Assembly (NCBI GenBank): GCA_963754875.1
Contig: CAVWHO010000020.1
Location: 401,405-465,404 of the forward strand
Length of the DNA stretch: 64,000 bases
Direction of reading: 5' to 3'
Origin: Nitrospirota bacterium
GTDB lineage: Bacteria > Nitrospirota > UBA9217
Shown: positions 48,482 to 64,000 of the stretch, one piece after another
Layout: each line of letters opens with the position of its first letter
How positions within the stretch are numbered: the first letter of the stretch is position 1
Program-made: the position numbers and the translations under genes
The notes under the pieces: model-generated
The model's database searches: none
Told to the model about the DNA's origin: nothing
Seen by the model: only the letters and a program-made list of their open reading frames with translations

Positions 48482-48958
48482 ATGAGAAACGACCCATGCA
48501 GATTACTGGATACAGGCGATCAATTCCCGCCGATGGATATTCCTACCGTACAAGGCGATAGAATCATCCTACCTGATTATTTCACTGGTCACTGGAACGT
48601 GTTCCTGATCTACCGGGGACATTGGTGAACGTTCTGCCGCCAGCAGTTGCTGGAATTTCAGAAGACCATTGCCGAGTTTGACCGCAGGCATATCAACGTC
48701 GTTGCCGCATCAGCAGACCCCGTGGAAGAGGCGGCAAATACGGTCAGCAAATACGGAATTACCTTTCCCGTGGGATACGGCCTCTCGCCGGCCGATGTCT
48801 CAACGGCAACCGGCGCCTTCTTTAATCCCGAAAAACACTTTATTCATGCGGCAGGATTTATCATTGGACCGGATGGCAAAGTGGAGAATGCCGTATACAG
48901 CAGCAGATCTATAGGCCGTTTGACTGCAAAGGACTGTTTGGCATTCATCAAATCCTGA
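48482..48958 (+). CDS. AhpC/TSA peroxiredoxin-like selenoprotein (UxxC; TGA 48626-48628)
   Basis: RBS+ATG 48482 reads 'YRGHW*TFCRQQL' in frame with ORF 48647-48958. Confidence 0.85.
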
Positions 48959-50099: not shown

Positions 50100-51053
50100 A
50101 TGATCAGGAAATTCAGTGAAACAATTTTATCCCATGGGCCGCTCAAGGCACTTGAAAGCAAAATTCTGCAGGTCAACCTCGGCTATCGCTGCAACATGGC
50201 CTGCAAGCATTGTCATGTGTCCGGCGGTCCGGCACGGAATGAGATCATGGACCGGGACACCGCTGAACGGGTCCTGCAGGTGCTGCTGAAGAATCCTTTT
50301 GAAACGCTCGATCTCACCGGCGGCGCACCGGAGCTGAACCCGTCCTTTCGCTGGATTGTTGAGGAGGCGCGAAAGGCCGGCCGTCATGTCCTTGTCCGGA
50401 CAAACCTCACGATATTTTATGAGCAGGGAATGGAAGACCTTCCCGAGTTTTATCGGGACCATGGCGTCGAGCTGATCGCATCCCTGCCGTATTATCTGGA
50501 GGACAGCGTTGACCGCGTGCGCGGCAGCGGGGCCTATCAGAAAAGCGTTAATGCCCTCAAAAGGCTGAATGCCCTTGGATACGGACGGGATGCGTCGGGC
50601 CTCGTGATAAGCCTGGTCTACAATCCTCCGGGGCTGTTTGTCGCGCCGGGCCAGTGCGCATTGGAGGCGGAATACAAGAAAGAGCTTGGGGGGCGCTTCG
50701 GCATCGTGTTCAACCGGCTGTACACCTTCACCAATATGCCGATCGGCAGGTTCAGGGATTTCCTGATCAGGACGAACAATCTGGAAAAGTACCTTCAGAA
50801 GCTCGCTGACGCCTTTAATCCGGCAACACTGGAGGGCATCATGTGCAGATATATGGTGAATGTGGGGTGGGATGGAAAACTCTATGATTGCGATTTCAAC
50901 CAAGTGATGGGGCTCCCGACCGGTCCCGGCGCGCCGCCGCATATCAATGAATTCGACTATCAGGCGCTTGCAGGGCGGTCGATCGCGGTAGGTGACCACT
51001 GCTATGGATGTACAGCCGGGCAGGGATCGTCATGAGTAGGCGCGATAGCGTAG
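50100..51053 (+). CDS. arsS: Arsenosugar-biosynthesis radical SAM (seleno)protein ArsS (TGA 51033-51035)
   Basis: CNMACKHCH, 'DLTGGAPEL','DCDFNQ','HCYGCTAGQGSS*VGAIA-TAG'. Confidence 0.85.
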
Positions 51054-53253: not shown

Positions 53254-54780
53254 ATGAAAGATACGCCGCTGGTTCTTCCCCGCGACAAAAGCAATGAAAT
53301 TCTCCTCAATAACGTGCATCCTGCCGCGTGGCGGAATCCCGAACCGGCCTCACGGTATAACCTTGTCGTGATCGGTGCCGGCACTGCCGGTCTCGTCACG
53401 GCCGCAGGCGCGGCGGGCCTGGGCGCGAAGGTTGCCTTGATCGAGCGGCATCTCATGGGCGGCGATTGCCTCAACGTGGGGTGCGTGCCTTCCAAGGGCA
53501 TTATCCGGGCGAGTCGGGCGGTCCATGACGCGAAGACTAGCAGCGAGTTCGGCGTAAAAGGGGCGGATAACGTTTCCCTCGACTTCGGGAAAGCAATGGA
53601 ACGCATGCGGACGATCAGGGCGGGCATCAGTCACCATGACTCCTTCGAACGATTCAGCAGGGAACTGGGCATCGATGTCTTCCTCGGGAGCGGGGCATTT
53701 ACCGGGCCGGATACGATCAGTGTTGATGGAAAAGAGCTTCGTTTCGCAAAGGCTGCGATTTGCGCCGGCGCGCGGGCTGCGGCGCCGCCCATGCCGGGAA
53801 TAGAGGAGACCGGCTACCTGACGAATGAGAATGTTTTCTGGCTGACCGACCTGCCGAAACGCCTTGCGGTCATCGGCGGCGGTCCCATCGGGTGCGAACT
53901 TTCCCAGGCCTTCGGCCGCATGGGGAGCGTTGTGACGATCGTTGAGAATACCGGACATGTATTGTCACGGGAAGACGCCGATGCTGCCGAGATCGTTCAA
54001 CAGTCGCTCATCCGGGATGGTGTAAAGCTTCTCTTTAACGCCAAGATACTGGGTGTCCGTAAAGAGAGCGAAGACAAGGTCCTTGCTCTTGAGCGCGGCG
54101 GACAGAAGGAGGAGATCAGGGTCGATGAAATCCTTGTCGGCATCGGCCGCGCTCCGAATGTGAACGGCATGAACCTTGAGGCAGCAGGCGTCGCCTACGA
54201 TCCACGGCTGGGTGTGAAGGTCAACGCGCTGCTCCAGACTTCGAATCCGCGTGTGTACGCAGCCGGAGACATCTGCTTTCCCTATAAGTTCACCCATACG
54301 GCAGACGCGCTCGCCCGCATCCTGATCGCGAATGCATTGTTCAAGGCGCGGCAGAAGACCTCATCACTCGTCATTCCCTGGTGCACCTTCACCGATCCTG
54401 AAGTCGCCCACGTTGGCATGTACGAAAAAGAGGCCCGCGATAAAGGCATCGATGTCCATACGCTTACGGTCAATCTTGCGGACGTGGACCGGGCTCTTCT
54501 GGACGGCGAAACCAATGGGTTCGCGCGCGTGCATCTGAAGAGAGGCACCGACAAGATCATTGGTGCCACGGTCGTTGCCCGCCACGCAGGGGAAATGATC
54601 AACGAAATATCCCTCGCAATCACCTCCGGACTCGGTCTCTCCGCGATCGGCAGAACGATCCATCCCTACCCCACACAGGCCGAGGCGGTTAAGAAGCTGG
54701 CTGACGCGTACAACAGAACGCGGCTGACGCCTTTTGTAAAAAGGCTATTTGTCAAATGGCTCAAATGGCAGCGGTCGTAA
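53254..54780 (+). CDS. Pyridine nucleotide-disulfide oxidoreductase (MerA-like, lacks C-terminal CC)
   Basis: GGDCLNVGCVP, GGGPIG, HPYPT. Confidence 0.9.
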   Translation: MKDTPLVLPRDKSNEILLNNVHPAAWRNPEPASRYNLVVIGAGTAGLVTAAGAAGLGAKVALIERHLMGGDCLNVGCVPSKGIIRASRAVHDAKTSSEFGVKGADNVSLDFGKAMERMRTIRAGISHHDSFERFSRELGIDVFLGSGAFTGPDTISVDGKELRFAKAAICAGARAAAPPMPGIEETGYLTNENVFWLTDLPKRLAVIGGGPIGCELSQAFGRMGSVVTIVENTGHVLSREDADAAEIVQQSLIRDGVKLLFNAKILGVRKESEDKVLALERGGQKEEIRVDEILVGIGRAPNVNGMNLEAAGVAYDPRLGVKVNALLQTSNPRVYAAGDICFPYKFTHTADALARILIANALFKARQKTSSLVIPWCTFTDPEVAHVGMYEKEARDKGIDVHTLTVNLADVDRALLDGETNGFARVHLKRGTDKIIGATVVARHAGEMINEISLAITSGLGLSAIGRTIHPYPTQAEAVKKLADAYNRTRLTPFVKRLFVKWLKWQRS

Positions 54781-54790
54781 GGGTGATGTC

Positions 54791-55463
54791 ATGAACAAAA
54801 AGAAGCTTTTGGTCATCGCGTTCGTTGCAATCCTGGCAGGGCTGTTCTTTTATCTCGACCTGGGGAAATACCTGACCCTGGCGTCGCTCAAGGACAACCG
54901 CGCAGCCCTTGCGGCATTCTACGGGCAGCACCGCGTTGCCATGATTTCGCTATTCATCGCGGTCTATATCATTCAGACAGCGCTGTCTCTGCCCGGTGCG
55001 GCCGTGCTGTCGCTTGCAGGGGGGGGCCGTATTCGGAGCCGTCATGGGCGCCCTCTTCGTCAATATCGGCGCGACTCTTGACGCTTCAGCCGCGTTCCTC
55101 GTGGCCCGCTATTTGTTCCACGAGGTAATACAGAAAAGATTCGGCCCCCGATTGGAAAAGCTAAACAGGGAACTCGAAACGAGGGGGTTCAATTATCTCC
55201 TGTTCCTTCGTCTGGTCCCGGTATTTCCCTTCTTCCTCATTAATCTCGGCGCGGGCCTGACCGGAATGCCTTTACGGACCTATATTCTCGGGACCATGGT
55301 GGGAATCATCCCCGGCAGCTTCGTATATTGCAATGCCGGGGCGAGTCTTGCCACGATCAACAGCATGAGCGAGGTCGCCTCTGTCCGTGTACTCGGCTCT
55401 TTTGCACTGCTGGGACTGTTCGCGCTGGTGCCGGTGGTCTATCAGAAGATAACAAAGAAGTAG
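54791..55463 (+). CDS. TVP38/TMEM64 (DedA/SNARE-associated) membrane protein, +1 frameshift in G8 run 55019-55026
   Basis: 'LSLPGAAVLSLAGG' then shifted 'AVFG...LRLVPVFPFFLIN'. Confidence 0.85.
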
Positions 55464-56705: not shown

Positions 56706-56930
56706 GTGAAAGAACGGACGCAAACATTCCGAAAACGATTCTACGCCGCACTCGCCGGCACGATCGCGGTTGCGATATGCTGTTTTACGCCGATCCTGGT
56801 CATCGCACTGGCCGCTGTAGGTTTGGGCGCGCTCACCCCGTACCTCGATTACGTGCTTTTCCCCGCATTGGGGGCGTTCGTAATCCTGACGGTCAGTTCA
56901 TACAGGAAGTGGCAAAAAACCCATGGCTAA
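56706..56930 (+). CDS. merF: Mercury transporter MerF
   Basis: 'AICCFTPILV...YLDYVLFPAL'. Confidence 0.9.
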   Translation: MKERTQTFRKRFYAALAGTIAVAICCFTPILVIALAAVGLGALTPYLDYVLFPALGAFVILTVSSYRKWQKTHG

Positions 56931-58705: not shown

Positions 58706-58729
58706 GCAGAGCTATAAAGGAGAGTAATC

Positions 58730-59716
58730 GTGAAGATCGACTGCTATATCTCACAGGGATGCGGTTCAGAGGAAGCGTTAAAGGAGAATATCGACCGCGC
58801 CCTGGAGGCTGAAAAGATTCAAGCAAAAGTAAGCATTCACCGGATCAGCGATGAAAAGGCGGCGGAATTGAAGCTCAGCGGATCGCCGTCAGTCTTCATA
58901 AACGGCAGGGAATTGCAGTCGTCCGGCACCGTCGGCTTTTCCTGAAGGATGTTCACTGACGAGTCAGGCAGACTCGCGAATGTGCCGTCCGTAGATACGC
59001 TGCGAAAGGCCATGAAGGAGCCGGAGTGCGGGACGGGTGTTGATTGCAACAAAGAAGTGTCCGCTGTGAAAAGCCTTATGGACCAGATTGGGGCTACAGT
59101 ACAGGGGAGACTGTCCGCGGCCAACCTAAGCCAATCGGAAAACGAGACGCGAAAGTATTTTTTGAAAGAGTTCGCGAAGACCGGCAAGCCTCCTGCCGAA
59201 CAATCGATCGTCGATGCAATGAAACTGCCGTCCCTGGAATCGGTCCGCAGGTTCATCGAAAGACTGCATAAGGCGGATATCCTTACGATGGAAAACGGAG
59301 AGATCGTATCCGCATATCCTTTCTCCGCAAAACCGACACGCCACAAAGTGGCGTTCCCGGATGGGCATGAAATCCATGCGCTTTGCGCGACAGACGCCCT
59401 GGGCATTCACTTCATGCTCGGACAGGACATCGTTGTCCGGTCGCGCTGCCCTGAGTGCGAGGGGGAAATGAAGATCGAGATGAAGGACGGTAAGATCGTC
59501 TCTTCCGTTCCGGATGGCGTGGTTGAATTTATCAGCAGCGGGGACCACTGTGGATGCACCGCAAAGACCTTTTGCCCGTTCATGAACTTCTTCTGCTCGA
59601 AGGACCATCTTGAGAAGTGGCGGGAAAAGAACCCCGCCTCCGCTAACGGCGAAATGTACCAGCTTCAGCAGGTCCTGGAGCATGGGAAAAACATCTTCGG
59701 AGATTTTCTGAAATAA
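58730..59716 (+). CDS. merB: Thioredoxin-fold (seleno)domain fused to organomercurial lyase MerB (TGA 58943-58945)
   Basis: 'GSPSVFING...GFS*RMF...NVPS' in frame with the MerB core 'AYPFS','HALCATDALG','SRCP','FCPFMNFF'. Confidence 0.8.
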
Positions 59717-60331: not shown

Positions 60332-60802
60332 TTATTTCTCTTTCCACATTCTTGCGTCAAAGACAAAGGGCATTGGGTCGCTAATGCGGATTTTCTTGAA
60401 ATCGCGGTGAGCGGGATTGAGCAGATAGTTCCAACTTTTGGGAACCAGCACGGAGGGGACCCGGAAAACCGCTGTGTCCGCCTTCTTTGCCCAGGTAGAA
60501 CCGATCTCTTTGGTTGAATCCCTCGGCGGTTCGGCGGTCCAGTCATCGGGGAGATCGGCGCTCTTCAGCTTTTCAATAGGGACGCTGTCCGGAATCTCGA
60601 TTTTATAGTACACGAACTTGATGTGAGAAGCGTCGAACCCCAGGTGAACGAACTTCTCCAGAACGGACAGGGCGATGGACTCGCTTACGTAAATGACGGG
60701 TATACCCTGGTGATGCCATCGGCCGCTTACGCGGCGCGCTCCTTCGCCGGTAAACGCTTCCTTGGCACGCTTCGCTTTATCCAGGCGCCAGGCAGTGATC
60801 AC
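60332..60802 (-). CDS. RES domain toxin
   Basis: 'GEGARRVSGRW','YVSESIALSVLE','NYLLNPAH'. Confidence 0.9.
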   Translation of the reverse strand: MITAWRLDKAKRAKEAFTGEGARRVSGRWHHQGIPVIYVSESIALSVLEKFVHLGFDASHIKFVYYKIEIPDSVPIEKLKSADLPDDWTAEPPRDSTKEIGSTWAKKADTAVFRVPSVLVPKSWNYLLNPAHRDFKKIRISDPMPFVFDARMWKEK

Positions 60803-61239
60803 GAGATAACCCCGTATTCAATGCGCCAGAGAAGGTCTTCAACCTCCTTTGCACCGGCTTCGGTATGCAGCAGATCAAGGGGTGTTTTACCGCCTAATCC
60901 CACCTGTTGACGACGAAGCCACTCCTTGGCTTTTTCCTCGTTCTCCAAGACCTCACAGGCGATCGAAAAGATCCTTGCCAGCCGGTAAAGCCGGTCGCTG
61001 GCGATGGCCGACAGGCGCTGACTCGGCGAGTTACGGACTCGGGCCAAGGTTCGCTCGCTCACTTCGATTATGCCGGCAAAAATGGGAAGGGGAAGGTCCA
61101 GCAAGCCCCTGACATGGTTGCCCGCTTTATAAGGAAACCCCTCGCGGATGAGCTTGTCCAAGTCCAGGGTGCTTTTAATTTTGCGTCCAAGAGATGTCTG
61201 TCCGCCAAGGACTGATACTATATTCTGTTCGGTAAACAT
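60799..61239 (-). CDS. Xre/MbcA/ParS antitoxin
   Basis: 'SDRLYRLAR','LGGKTPLDLL..EAG..VEDLL.RIEYG'. Confidence 0.9.
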   Translation of the reverse strand: MFTEQNIVSVLGGQTSLGRKIKSTLDLDKLIREGFPYKAGNHVRGLLDLPLPIFAGIIEVSERTLARVRNSPSQRLSAIASDRLYRLARIFSIACEVLENEEKAKEWLRRQQVGLGGKTPLDLLHTEAGAKEVEDLLWRIEYGVIS

Positions 61240-61565
61240 GGAAGTAACCTCCTGTCATCTGGCATTATATTATCAGACAAATGGCATGCTGTCAATGACG
61301 ATGTAGTTCGAGAATATTATGTTTCCGATGAATTAAAGGGAACCGAGCGCTCAGGCCGGCCACAAGAGTTCCACAAAAGTGACCGCATGATTTTGGCTGT
61401 CGAGAAGCAAGTAGGATTTCGGATCTCATGAATATTTCAAGGAAACCGTGACGGAAAATTTTTCGATTATTTCTATTATTGCCCATGAAAAAAAATGAAC
61501 TGGTACAGTAACTGATACAGACATAGAAAAAGGGTCAGCTTTTGCAAGCTAACCCCTTGATTACT

Positions 61566-61641
61566 TGGTGGAGCTGAGGGGGATCGAACCCCTGACCCCA
61601 AGACTGCCAGCCTTGTGCTCTCCCAGCTGAGCTACAGCCCC
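61566..61641 (-). tRNA. tRNA-Ala(GGC)
   Basis: GGGGCTG acceptor stem, anticodon loop CTGGCAG, TTCGA, CCA end. Confidence 0.97.
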
Positions 61642-61712
61642 ACATAATTTGCCGCAACAAGGTGATTAATTTAACATCACGTACTGATGTTGTCAAGAAA
61701 AAAGACGGATTT

Positions 61713-62568
61713 TCAATGCACGGAGCAGGATATGCAGGGGTCGTAAGACCTGACGAGCATCTGGGCGAGGAGTTCTATCTTCTGATCATTGGCCCCTTGT
61801 TTTGCATACTGGGCAACAAGGGCGCTGAGATCGTGTTGGATGTTGGCGTGGTTCTGGCTCGTGGGAATGACACAATCAGCGGACATGATTCTGCCGTCCT
61901 TGTCGAACTCGTAGCAATGATAGAGGATCCCCCGTGGCACTTCAACCGCGCCGACACCGACGCCGCTCTTTGGGGCAACCTTCTGTCGCGGTTCCTGCCA
62001 TGCTGAGCCTGTAAGCTCGTCGATAAGAGTGATGGCGTCCATGACCACGTGAATGCATTCTACCAGCTGCGCGATGTTGTTCATATACGGATTGTGGTTC
62101 ACCGGCTTGAGCCCGAATCTTACTGCAATCTCCCTGGCTGTGGGGTGAAGAAATATATAATTATTGTTCACACGCGCAAGCGCTCCAACGGCAAACGATT
62201 CGCGCGACAAGCGGCTCCATTTTGAAGTCGACTGCTCCACCAGGAATTCATTGGTCATCAACCGGTATTCGTGTTCTTTCTTAATAACGCCGTCCGTGGA
62301 AGCCAAATCTCCACCGATGAAGGGATAGCTTCCTTCACCTTTCAGCGAGACAAATTCGGTCTCCCGAGTGAAGTCGGGCAGTACAATCTGCCGGAATAGT
62401 TCCGCGGTGCGCAAAAGGTCTTCTCCAGCGTCTTTCAACCGGGTACTGAATTGCACGAGTTCTTTTTTTTCGGGCAACATGGTGAAGCCGCCCACGATTG
62501 TTCTCGTAGGGTGCATCCGTCGTCCGCCGATGCAGTCGCAAACGTCATTTGCCAATTGCTTCATCCGC
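61713..62568 (-). CDS. [NiFe] hydrogenase large subunit (group 3b-like), C-terminal part only
   Basis: 'VGALARVN','EVPRGILYH','YDPCISCSVH'; 5' part lost at the fold-back. Confidence 0.9.
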
Positions 62569-64000
62569 GCGGACGACGGATGCACCCTGAGAACAATCGT
62601 GGGCGGCTTCACCATGTTGCCGAAAAAAAGAACTCGTGCAATTCAGTACCCGGTTGAACAGCTGGAGAAGACCTTTTGCGCGCCGCGGAACTCTGCCGGA
62701 CATTCGTACTGCCCGACTTCACTCGGGAGACCGAATTTGTCTCGCTGAAAGGTGAAGGAAGCTATCCCTCGTCGCTTCCACGGACGGCGTTTATTAAGAA
62801 AGAACACGAATACCCGGTTGATGACCAATGAATTCCTGGTGGAGCAGTCGACTTCGATGGAGCCGCTTGTCGCGCGAATCGTTTGCCGTTGGAGCGCTTG
62901 CGCGTGTGAACAATAATTATATATTTCTTTCACCCCACAGCCAGGGAGATTGCAGTAAGATTCGGGCTCAAGCCGGGTGAAGCGCGATATCCGTTTATGA
63001 ACAACATCGCGCAGCTGGTAGAATGCATTCCACGTGGTCATGGACGCCGTCACTGTTATCGACGAGCTTACAGGCCCACATGGCAGGAACCGCGACAGAA
63101 GGTTGCCCCAAAGAGCGGCGTCGGTGTCGGCGCGGTTGAAGTGCCACGGGGGATCCTCTATCATTGCTACGAGTTCGACAAGGACGGCAAGATCGTGTCC
63201 GGTGTGTGCTGTTGTCCCACGACCAGAGGCCAGCCGCCAACATCCAACACGATCTGACGCCCTTGTTGCCCAGTATCCAAAACAAGGGGCCAATGATCAG
63301 AAGATAGAACTCCTCGCCCAGATGCTCGTCAGGTCTTACGACCCCTGCATATCCTGCTCCGTGCATTGAAAATCCGTCTTTTTTCTTGACAACATTGGTA
63401 CGTGATGTTAAATTAATCACCTTGTTGCGGCAAATTATGTGGGGCTGTAGCTCAGCTGGGAGAGCACAAGGCTGGCAGTCTTGGGGTCAGGGGTTCGATC
63501 CCCCTCAGCTCCACCAAGTAATCAAGGGGTTAGCTTGCAAAAGCTGACCCTTTTTCTATGTCTGTATCAGTTACTGTACCAGTTCATTTTTTTTCATGGG
63601 CAATAATAGAAATAATCGAAAAATTTTCCGTCACGGTTTCCTTGAAATATTCATGAGATCCGAAATCCTACTTGCTTCTCGACAGCCAAAATCATGCGGT
63701 CACTTTTGTGGAACTCTTGTGGCCGGCCTGAGCGCTCGGTTCCCTTTAATTCATCGGAAACATAATATTCTCGAACTACATCGTCATTGACAGCATGCCA
63801 TTTGTCTGATAATATAATGCCAGATGACAGGAGGTTACTTCCATGTTTACCGAACAGAATATAGTATCAGTCCTTGGCGGCCAGACATCTCTTGGACGCA
63901 AAATTAAAAGCACCCTGGACTTGGACAAGCTCATCCGCGAGGGGTTTCCTTAGAAGCGGGCAAGCATGTCAGGGGCTTGCTGGACCTTCCCTTCCTCGGC
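62569..64000 (+). other. Error-rich inverted duplicate of ~61090-62527, including a second tRNA-Ala copy at 63441-63516
   Basis: Reverse complement of the left arm with many indels; ~40-nt loop at 62528-62568. Confidence 0.9.

Follow-up and report, generated by a model that had tools for sequence, protein, structure and literature searches.

A likely selenoprotein that joins a DF-like domain to a predicted mercury lyase in a Nitrospirota mer operon

On a contig of a Nitrospirota bacterium (CAVWHO010000020.1), two open reading frames of 71 aa (58730-58945) and 255 aa (58949-59716) stand in one frame with TGA-AGG between them. Coordinates refer to the window, that is, the whole stretch of 64,000 nucleotides analyzed. 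Are these two genes, or a single gene whose TGA is read as selenocysteine (Sec), and what would a Sec-containing domain do on an enzyme of the MerB type? On the sequence evidence, the two annotated genes are likely one selenoprotein, in which a DF-like domain precedes a predicted mercury lyase.

Probable selenocysteine at codon 72

A preliminary description of the locus had noted TCC-TGA-AGG-ATG at 58940-58951 and had read the TGA as U, which yields a protein of 328 residues containing GFS-U-RMF. This reading is correct, and the proposed Sec read-through is supported by the Sec machinery of the genome (selA, selB and selD above their cut-offs, plus tRNA-Sec), by the in-frame TGA and by the aligned Cys of homologs. 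Altogether, these observations make Sec insertion at codon 72 very probable. The closest named relatives are Nitrospirota records with 83-85% identity. The layout of the locus is given in Table 1.

Table 1. Features of the operon and of the fusion gene, with their positions in the window
Feature	Position	Strand	Basis or remark
merF, mercury transporter	56706..56930	+	NF033565, 87.2 bits against a cut-off of 50
merA, mercuric reductase, 467 aa	56960..58363	+	TIGR02053, 508 bits against a cut-off of 454
SHOCT-domain membrane protein, 104 aa	58391..58705	+	PF09851; precedes the fusion in related loci too
Ribosome-binding-like site AAGGAG, upstream of fusion gene	58717-58722		
Fusion gene, DF-like domain plus MerB, 328 aa, one in-frame TGA	58730..59716	+	
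DF-like thioredoxin-fold domain, residues 1-97, with Cys11, Pro53 (GSP motif) and Sec72	58730..59020	+	
Cys11 codon, first-cysteine position of thioredoxin motif	58760..58762	+	
TGA codon 72, inferred Sec72	58943..58945	+	TGA/Cys column comparison
SECIS-like hairpin, 6-bp stem, loop AGGCA, 20 nt past UGA	58960..58976	+	
Variable linker, residues 98-112	59021..59065	+	pLDDT <50 at residues 100-112; dN/dS 0.55 (11 fused genes)
MerB-type lyase, residues 113-328	59066..59713	+	PF03243 match
Lyase residues C219, D222, C240, C282	59384, 59393, 59447, 59573		Extra C243, C289, H293
Likely exported protein, 119 aa	59742..60101	+	Often directly downstream of this MerB clade

The loci fetched for comparison gave 95 matches, 71 of them distinct, with the column absent from three partial matches. 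Codon 72 is TGA in 66 of the 71 distinct loci and a Cys codon in the remaining five, which are distant fusions. Thirty-five TGA loci run at least 200 codons on into MerB; the other 31 end sooner and comprise 27 stand-alone genes and four loci that resemble broken fusions. The TGA is retained in 35/35 distinct close fused loci, and no Cys version of the close fusion was found among these or among the best 120 listed proteins. Cys-version fusions, which the preliminary description had proposed to look for, exist further away: in the best 120 of 1,185 longer homologs the residue aligned with the TGA is Cys in 120/120, and the SCRxY motif that the preliminary description had given for small thioredoxin-like proteins near mer loci is real, as Cys homologs read SCRLY. 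Among the best 150 of 3,492 cluster representatives, column 72 is Cys in 117, absent in 30 (most of which terminate exactly there) and another residue in three, namely one Arg cluster and two further ones. The Arg cluster (P0254, five members) is a close stand-alone DF, and may reflect loss of the site or a variant.

When the front part was scored on the NCBIfam model NF049942, Cys at the TGA position scored 7 bits better than X. Both a second copy of the fusion (72 kb off, 85% identical) and a stand-alone DF gene in the genome retain the TGA. In a set of 11 fused genes, dN/dS amounts to 0.107 in the part ahead of the UGA, 0.125 behind it and 0.113 in MerB. An ATG lies 3 nt past the TGA in 34/35 fused loci, and the front part is absent from every gene call among the best 120 listed close database homologs. 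Databases end the gene at the UGA, and the listed MerB proteins of the clade therefore lack the front domain.

The hairpin described earlier, CGAGTC-AGGCA-GACTCG, is present downstream of the TGA and forms the core of the MFE structure. Its dimensions (loop of 5 nt, stem of 6 bp, loop sequence AGGCA, spacing of 20 nt, -15.3 kcal/mol over 48 nt) lie within the bSECIS ranges given in the available text of PMC13188914: loop of 3-9 nt, stem of 4-16 bp, G in the first two loop positions, spacing of 16-37 nt and MFE <= -7.5. Taken alone, the hairpin is no better than shuffled sequences (z -1.39 to +0.54 in four windows). Support for it comes from comparison between loci: the 5-bp stem is conserved at synonymous sites. 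Stem cells are paired in 98.1%, compared with 10-42% with slid partners, and the closing pair shows 10 two-sided changes in 66 rows. The Glu codon of the stem is GAG in 59/59 against a background of 130/306 (42%), its Leu codon is CTC in 58/62 against 45/222 (20%), and dS in the hairpin codons is 0.46 compared with 1.1-1.2 elsewhere (11 sequences). The 5-bp stem did not exceed its column-shuffle control (500/500) because the stem columns hardly vary.

A thioredoxin-fold domain on a MerB-type lyase

An HMM search of the N-terminal part, recommended in the preliminary description, gave NF049942 ('DF family (seleno)protein') as the best NCBIfam match for residues 4-94, across the TGA and over the full length of the model (positions 2-96 of 96), though under its cut-off (52.3 bits, E 4e-14, cut-off 70). 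Actinobacterial Cys forms likewise remain under the cut-off, with 47-57 bits. By its score, hence, the front domain is a related subgroup of the DF family and not a member by cut-off. The thioredoxin fold that had been proposed is supported by the predicted structure (AF2, pLDDT 89) and by a VIA match to a thioredoxin with Z 8.2, rmsd 2.9 and 77 of 97 residues aligned; the top VIA rows are nearly all thioredoxin-fold proteins. Foldseek matches of this domain are weak (best E 3e-3). The conserved thioredoxin proline is present (GSP, Pro53), and the CxxC redox motif is absent from the domain, with CGSE at the site.

The invariant residues of the front domain include Cys11, Gly51-Ser52-Pro53 and Cys/Sec72. 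Cys11 is found in 36/36 aligned domains, in 120/120 of the best 120 of 1,185 longer homologs and in 148/150 of the best 150 of 3,492 cluster representatives. The earlier view of a Cys/Sec N-terminal domain thus stands, but it had missed this second conserved ligand. In thioredoxins, a bridge to the substrate cysteine is formed by the residue preceding the conserved proline. Both AF2 models have isolated beta-bridges at Ser52 and at residue 72; taken with this anatomy, they indicate that residue 72 probably adjoins Cys11, and in the models it likely occupies the substrate-cysteine position.

Four loci of a Desulfobacterota sample described below (L202, L204, L205 and L206) have TGA at both 11 and 72. 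Judging from these codons, their DF genes are likely double selenoproteins, which supports the idea of a functional pair. A clear hairpin is found in these loci only past the second TGA. The DF genes of L202 and L204 adjoin ArsC-like genes, and in all four loci DF lies beside a 363-aa membrane protein that we take to resemble Acr3. A relationship between DF and DUF2703 was also considered and is unsupported (hhalign probability 2.8%).

The name 'hypothetical protein DF' comes from deep-Sep, which described the protein from one organism and detected no homologs with a TGA (PMC12013277, available text); DF is also included, under NF049942, in a 2026 review (PMC13188914, in the part available). 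The front domain is the same small Sec/Cys domain, with a match to the full-length model. In an alignment made by eye, however, the DF sequence given in PMC12013277 has U at our Cys11 and ends in FGIS just before our Sec72, and the published Sec site (position 11) is not matched by the fusion protein, which has Cys at 11 and Sec at 72. The available text of these two papers does not mention a mercury link of DF, and that of PMC12013277 mentions neither MerB nor a fusion.

As to the lyase, Pfam MerB (PF03243) matches residues 198-324 with 107.7 bits against a cut-off of 27. The preliminary description had the MerB core keep its CxxD catalytic pair and later cysteines, and indeed C219, D222, C240 and C282 align to C96, D99, C117 and C159 of solved MerB, the signature used in PMC8261052 according to its available text. 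C219, D222 and C282 are found in 93/93 aligned rows. C240, C243, C289 and H293 are present in 82-88 of the 93 and may represent a treble-clef metal site that has been retained (for the history of the fold, see the available part of PMC4999995). The AF2 model of the full protein has a pLDDT of 88.9, and Foldseek aligns it with E 1.7e-13 and a target-normalised TM of 0.82 to 5c17 and 0.72 to 3f0o. The cut-offs of the NCBIfam MerB equivalogs are missed by far (NF033555, 54.6 of 200 bits; NF009710, 63.9 of 193). Scored in this manner, the lyase belongs to the MerB family by Pfam and lies outside the narrow NCBIfam equivalog. In sum, the fusion shares with MerB (3f0o, 5c17; PF03243) the fold, the four-residue signature and an operon with merA and merF, and differs from it in an extra N-terminal part of 112 residues with Sec, in an identity of ~20% and in the additional C243, C289 and H293.

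Another Sec-containing MerB homolog, SaoL (NF040728), carries a CU motif at its lyase active site and belongs to a nine-gene sao operon, as described in the available text of bioRxiv 2022.07.06.499078. In contrast, the lyase site of the fusion is FCPF, all Cys; its Sec lies in the added domain and its context is mer. The fusion scores 92.3 bits on the SaoL model, whose cut-off is 140.

The nearest unfused MerB relatives come from Methanoperedens, Geobacter, Dehalococcoidia and other groups, in which merA and merT are frequent neighbors. In the trees, the Sec fusions make up a single clade with support (SH-aLRT 98-99) amid unfused MerBs, and the same MerB clade is also found without DF. The 1,185 longer homologs carry PF03243 in 106 of the best 120, the named ones coming from Actinomycetota, and public databases annotate the Cys fusions as 'alkylmercury lyase family protein'. 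In these proteins (for instance WP_065848419.1, on a Streptomyces anulatus plasmid) domain order and length (~320 aa) are the same and Cys11 is paired with Cys72; they differ from the Sec fusion in having Cys in place of Sec, in an identity of ~30% and in lying on a separate branch of the MerB tree. Trees, in one of which L116 was wrongly entered as fused, suggest separate origins of the Sec and Cys fusions, with a single origin not rejected (p-AU 0.128). As the Cys form is common in Actinomycetota, the architecture is not new.

Neighboring genes and carriers of the fusion

The preliminary description had placed next to the fusion a MerA devoid of an NmerA domain. The protein does lack NmerA (a search for the HMA domain gave no match) and it ends in CC. 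It is near the fusion but not adjacent, as the gene for the SHOCT-domain protein sits between them. The 119-aa product downstream has no match in Pfam or NCBIfam; the atlas lead consists of hypothetical clusters and Sap1 only, with a recognition score under threshold. The operon sits downstream of an ArsS cluster, and promoter and terminator scans around it remained at chance level.

Additional observations were made on the DNA around the operon. A second copy of the merA-SHOCT-fusion-119-aa gene array (G000:C20:386148-389279) shows 87% DNA identity over 4.5 kb, and its merA is broken by a frameshift, possibly an assembly error. A RES-Xre toxin-antitoxin pair is found past the operon (60332-61239) and likewise after the second copy. 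The ArsS radical SAM gene (50100-51053) contains a C-terminal TGA (GSS-U-VGAIA), read-through of which completes the TIGR04167 model and lifts its score from 424 to 433. A peroxiredoxin-like gene (48482-48958) harbors an in-frame TGA in a U-x-x-C motif (GHW-U-TFC), and gene callers would place its start downstream of the TGA. A VTT/TVP38-family gene (54749-55463) appears split by a frameshift, and two near-duplicate, partly broken segments of a NiFe hydrogenase large subunit with their flank (61292-63790) may be an assembly artefact.

In other genomes the DF domain is found in several arrangements with mercury genes. MerR-like, MerT and HMA genes occur in related loci, and stand-alone DF lies downstream of merA in L157 and L161 and downstream of merR and merT in L200. 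DF is divergent from a MerR-family regulator on two of the three actinobacterial plasmids viewed. MerR-MerB accompanies a separate DF gene in L110, L111 and L116, and P0112 has the reversed order MerB-DF and ends at GFS, an arrangement known from the protein alone. In L045:4314-5984 and L103:1423-2838, a MerR-like regulator is in frame with DF(TGA)-MerB as a three-part protein, the database form of which (P0122) ends at the TGA. Upstream open frames in L193, L194, L199 and L200 were examined as MerR-DF fusions and rejected, since DF is a separate gene there. A divergent MerB-like gene with a CALDA motif, seen at L207:2-676 and L208:460-1368, has an in-frame TGA near the C159 position (TAARSL-TGA-RKMVF), and the next gene is a separate DF whose codon 72 is TGA; from its sequence, this may be a second type of Sec-MerB paired with a Sec-DF.

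Stand-alone DF is also found in ars operons and beside Fur/rubrerythrin/CMD, GDSL/M28 and TlpA/CcdA genes. Given the ars operons and the contexts without a metal gene, the domain is not mercury-specific. In the Desulfobacterota sample (401 genomes around a Geobacter genome), 33/401 genomes have the domain; 25 DF loci of that sample comprise 18 with TGA and seven with Cys at 72, and none is fused to this MerB.

An intact fusion is carried by 13 genomes, 10 of them among 401 genomes of the phylum and three found in addition. All 13 have hgcA above its cut-off; this is no enrichment, as hgcA is present in 52/64 genomes of the family. In the host genome, hgcA (G000:C16:598766-599746, L173) encodes the NVWCAAGK motif and is followed by an hgcB-like ferredoxin that ends in CC. 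The carriers are likely mercury-methylating bacteria. When their genomes were queried with the protein and every candidate was scored, merA was found in only 4/13 (G000, G188 at a contig end, G402 and G403); in the other nine no MerA homolog was found, the best match being a generic oxidoreductase with 31-33% identity. The carriers are MAGs and may be incomplete, with several 98-100% complete in <=10 contigs; completeness of merA-less carriers is 100% in G095, 99% in G087 and 98% in G131 and G173. In five merA-less genes the fusion is under purifying selection (dN/dS 0.13-0.15). Among five genomes with an unfused MerB and an adjoining MerA that lacks NmerA, none has a clear DF, and one has a weak thioredoxin match. 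The suggestion that the domain serves to hand Hg(II) to MerA is thereby weakened: with MerA undetected in 9/13 carriers and the gene still under selection, hand-off to MerA cannot be its general role.

Nitrospirota MAGs with hgcAB and merB have been reported before, both with merA (PMC9948709, available part). According to the available text of PMC8261052, none of the MerB-only genomes encodes HgcAB, and the turnover of MerB without MerA is left open. In the present analysis, nine genomes have hgcA and this MerB, with no MerA found.

A proposed mercury-handling site and other interpretations

The interpretation that we favor, to which we give an even chance, is that of an organomercurial lyase with a tethered Cys11/Sec72 mercury-handling site, from which mercury would pass on to MerA where MerA is present. 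The proposed steps can be summarized as follows:

(i). SelB would recognize the hairpin and Sec would be placed at codon 72, as the evidence strongly indicates.

(ii). As the family, the fold and the operon suggest, R-Hg would be protonolysed to R-H and bound Hg(II) by C219, D222 and C282.

(iii). Cys11/Sec72 in the thioredoxin groove would take R-Hg or Hg(II) by ligand exchange and, by analogy with free thiols or NmerA elsewhere, would feed the lyase or clear its product.

(iv). MerA, where present, would receive the mercury at its C-terminal CC. As most carriers lack a detectable MerA, their end acceptor would be something else.

Capture of mercury by the front domain is plausible from its sequence. 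MerB retains its Hg(II) product until an acceptor takes it (PMC10114901, available text). The proposed role resembles that of NmerA and MerP as small tethered two-ligand mercury carriers. The likeness would be one of role, as the front domain differs from their HMA domains in fold and gives no HMA match. Binding of Hg by Se is very tight according to the available part of bioRxiv 2022.07.06.499078, and onward transfer from Sec is therefore harder to picture.

The main rival is a redox-repair role, which we regard as a possible though less probable explanation. The front domain would then be a thiol oxidoreductase that carries no mercury, and Cys11 and Sec72, cycling as a selenenylsulfide, would hold the cysteines of the lyase, or proteins damaged by metals, in the reduced state. 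The thioredoxin fold with its GSP proline motif fits such a role, as do the stand-alone DF genes in ars operons and near Fur/rubrerythrin/CMD or TlpA/CcdA genes, and Sec mostly serves redox catalysis (available text of PMC13188914). However, there is no CxxC and the partner residue lies 61 positions off; 106 of the best 120 longer homologs have MerB as the partner in the fusion; and an exposed selenol beside an enzyme that handles mercury would presumably bind Hg.

A third possibility, which seems improbable, is that Sec72 is a terminal trap, with near-irreversible Hg(II) binding or selenium-mediated demethylation that makes MerA dispensable. The 9/13 carriers without detectable MerA, several of them nearly complete, favor this explanation, and demethylation mediated by selenium, with HgSe as its product, is an established reaction (PMC10114901, part available). 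A one-shot trap would, however, limit the enzyme to one turnover per chain, Cys serves in the same architecture in Actinomycetota, and MerA is present in the operon of this genome.

Also quite improbable is a main activity of the lyase on some other organometal(loid), for example organoarsenic, organolead or organotin, with mercury secondary. Such a substrate would agree with the lack of merA in most carriers, with the ArsS cluster upstream of the operon and the DF genes in ars operons, and with the low scores on the MerB equivalog models; it agrees less with the presence of all four canonical MerB residues, with merF and merA in the operon or with the MerR-like, MerT and HMA genes of related loci. 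Finally, the TGA might be a true stop, either between a 71-aa gene and a MerB gene of 255 aa or in a fusion that has decayed. This would suit the database gene calls, the ATG past the TGA and a hairpin that alone does not exceed shuffles, but is very improbable because the TGA interrupts what Cys homologs encode as one continuous domain, stand-alone versions extend just 26-40 codons past it, selection is equal before and after it, the stem is conserved at synonymous sites and further Sec-type TGAs occur elsewhere in the window.

The literature searched (subscription journals and bioRxiv supplements being outside its scope) contains no description of a DF-MerB fusion or of Sec72, and term searches of the available text of PMC13326102 and PMC13745706 gave no match. 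Haft and colleagues state that no selenoprotein of mercury resistance came to light in their work (bioRxiv 2022.07.06.499078, available part), and in the available text of PMC9312934 the only ones listed are the MerB-like SaoL and putative selenoproteins of MerT and MerA. The architecture, widespread with Cys, and the named domain family were known beforehand; the papers searched describe neither the Sec form and its Sec72 site, nor the location of this site within a mer operon, nor its retention in likely methylators that lack merA.

A broader reading may be put forward for the phylum, with considerable doubt: its mercury-methylating anaerobes might carry a selenium-dependent demethylase that operates without MerA, in which Cys11/Sec72 would unload or trap the mercury released by MerB. 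DF would then count among the core components of mer, so far overlooked as such, with two ligands that can each be Sec. If so, selenium supply would set the balance between the making and the destruction of methylmercury inside one cell. The locus provides a likely selenoprotein of mercury resistance, in an operon with merF and merA, which would place selenium in bacterial mercury detoxification. To the question of MerB turnover in the absence of MerA, a tethered two-ligand domain offers a testable answer, and with the Cys form being common the biochemistry is easy.
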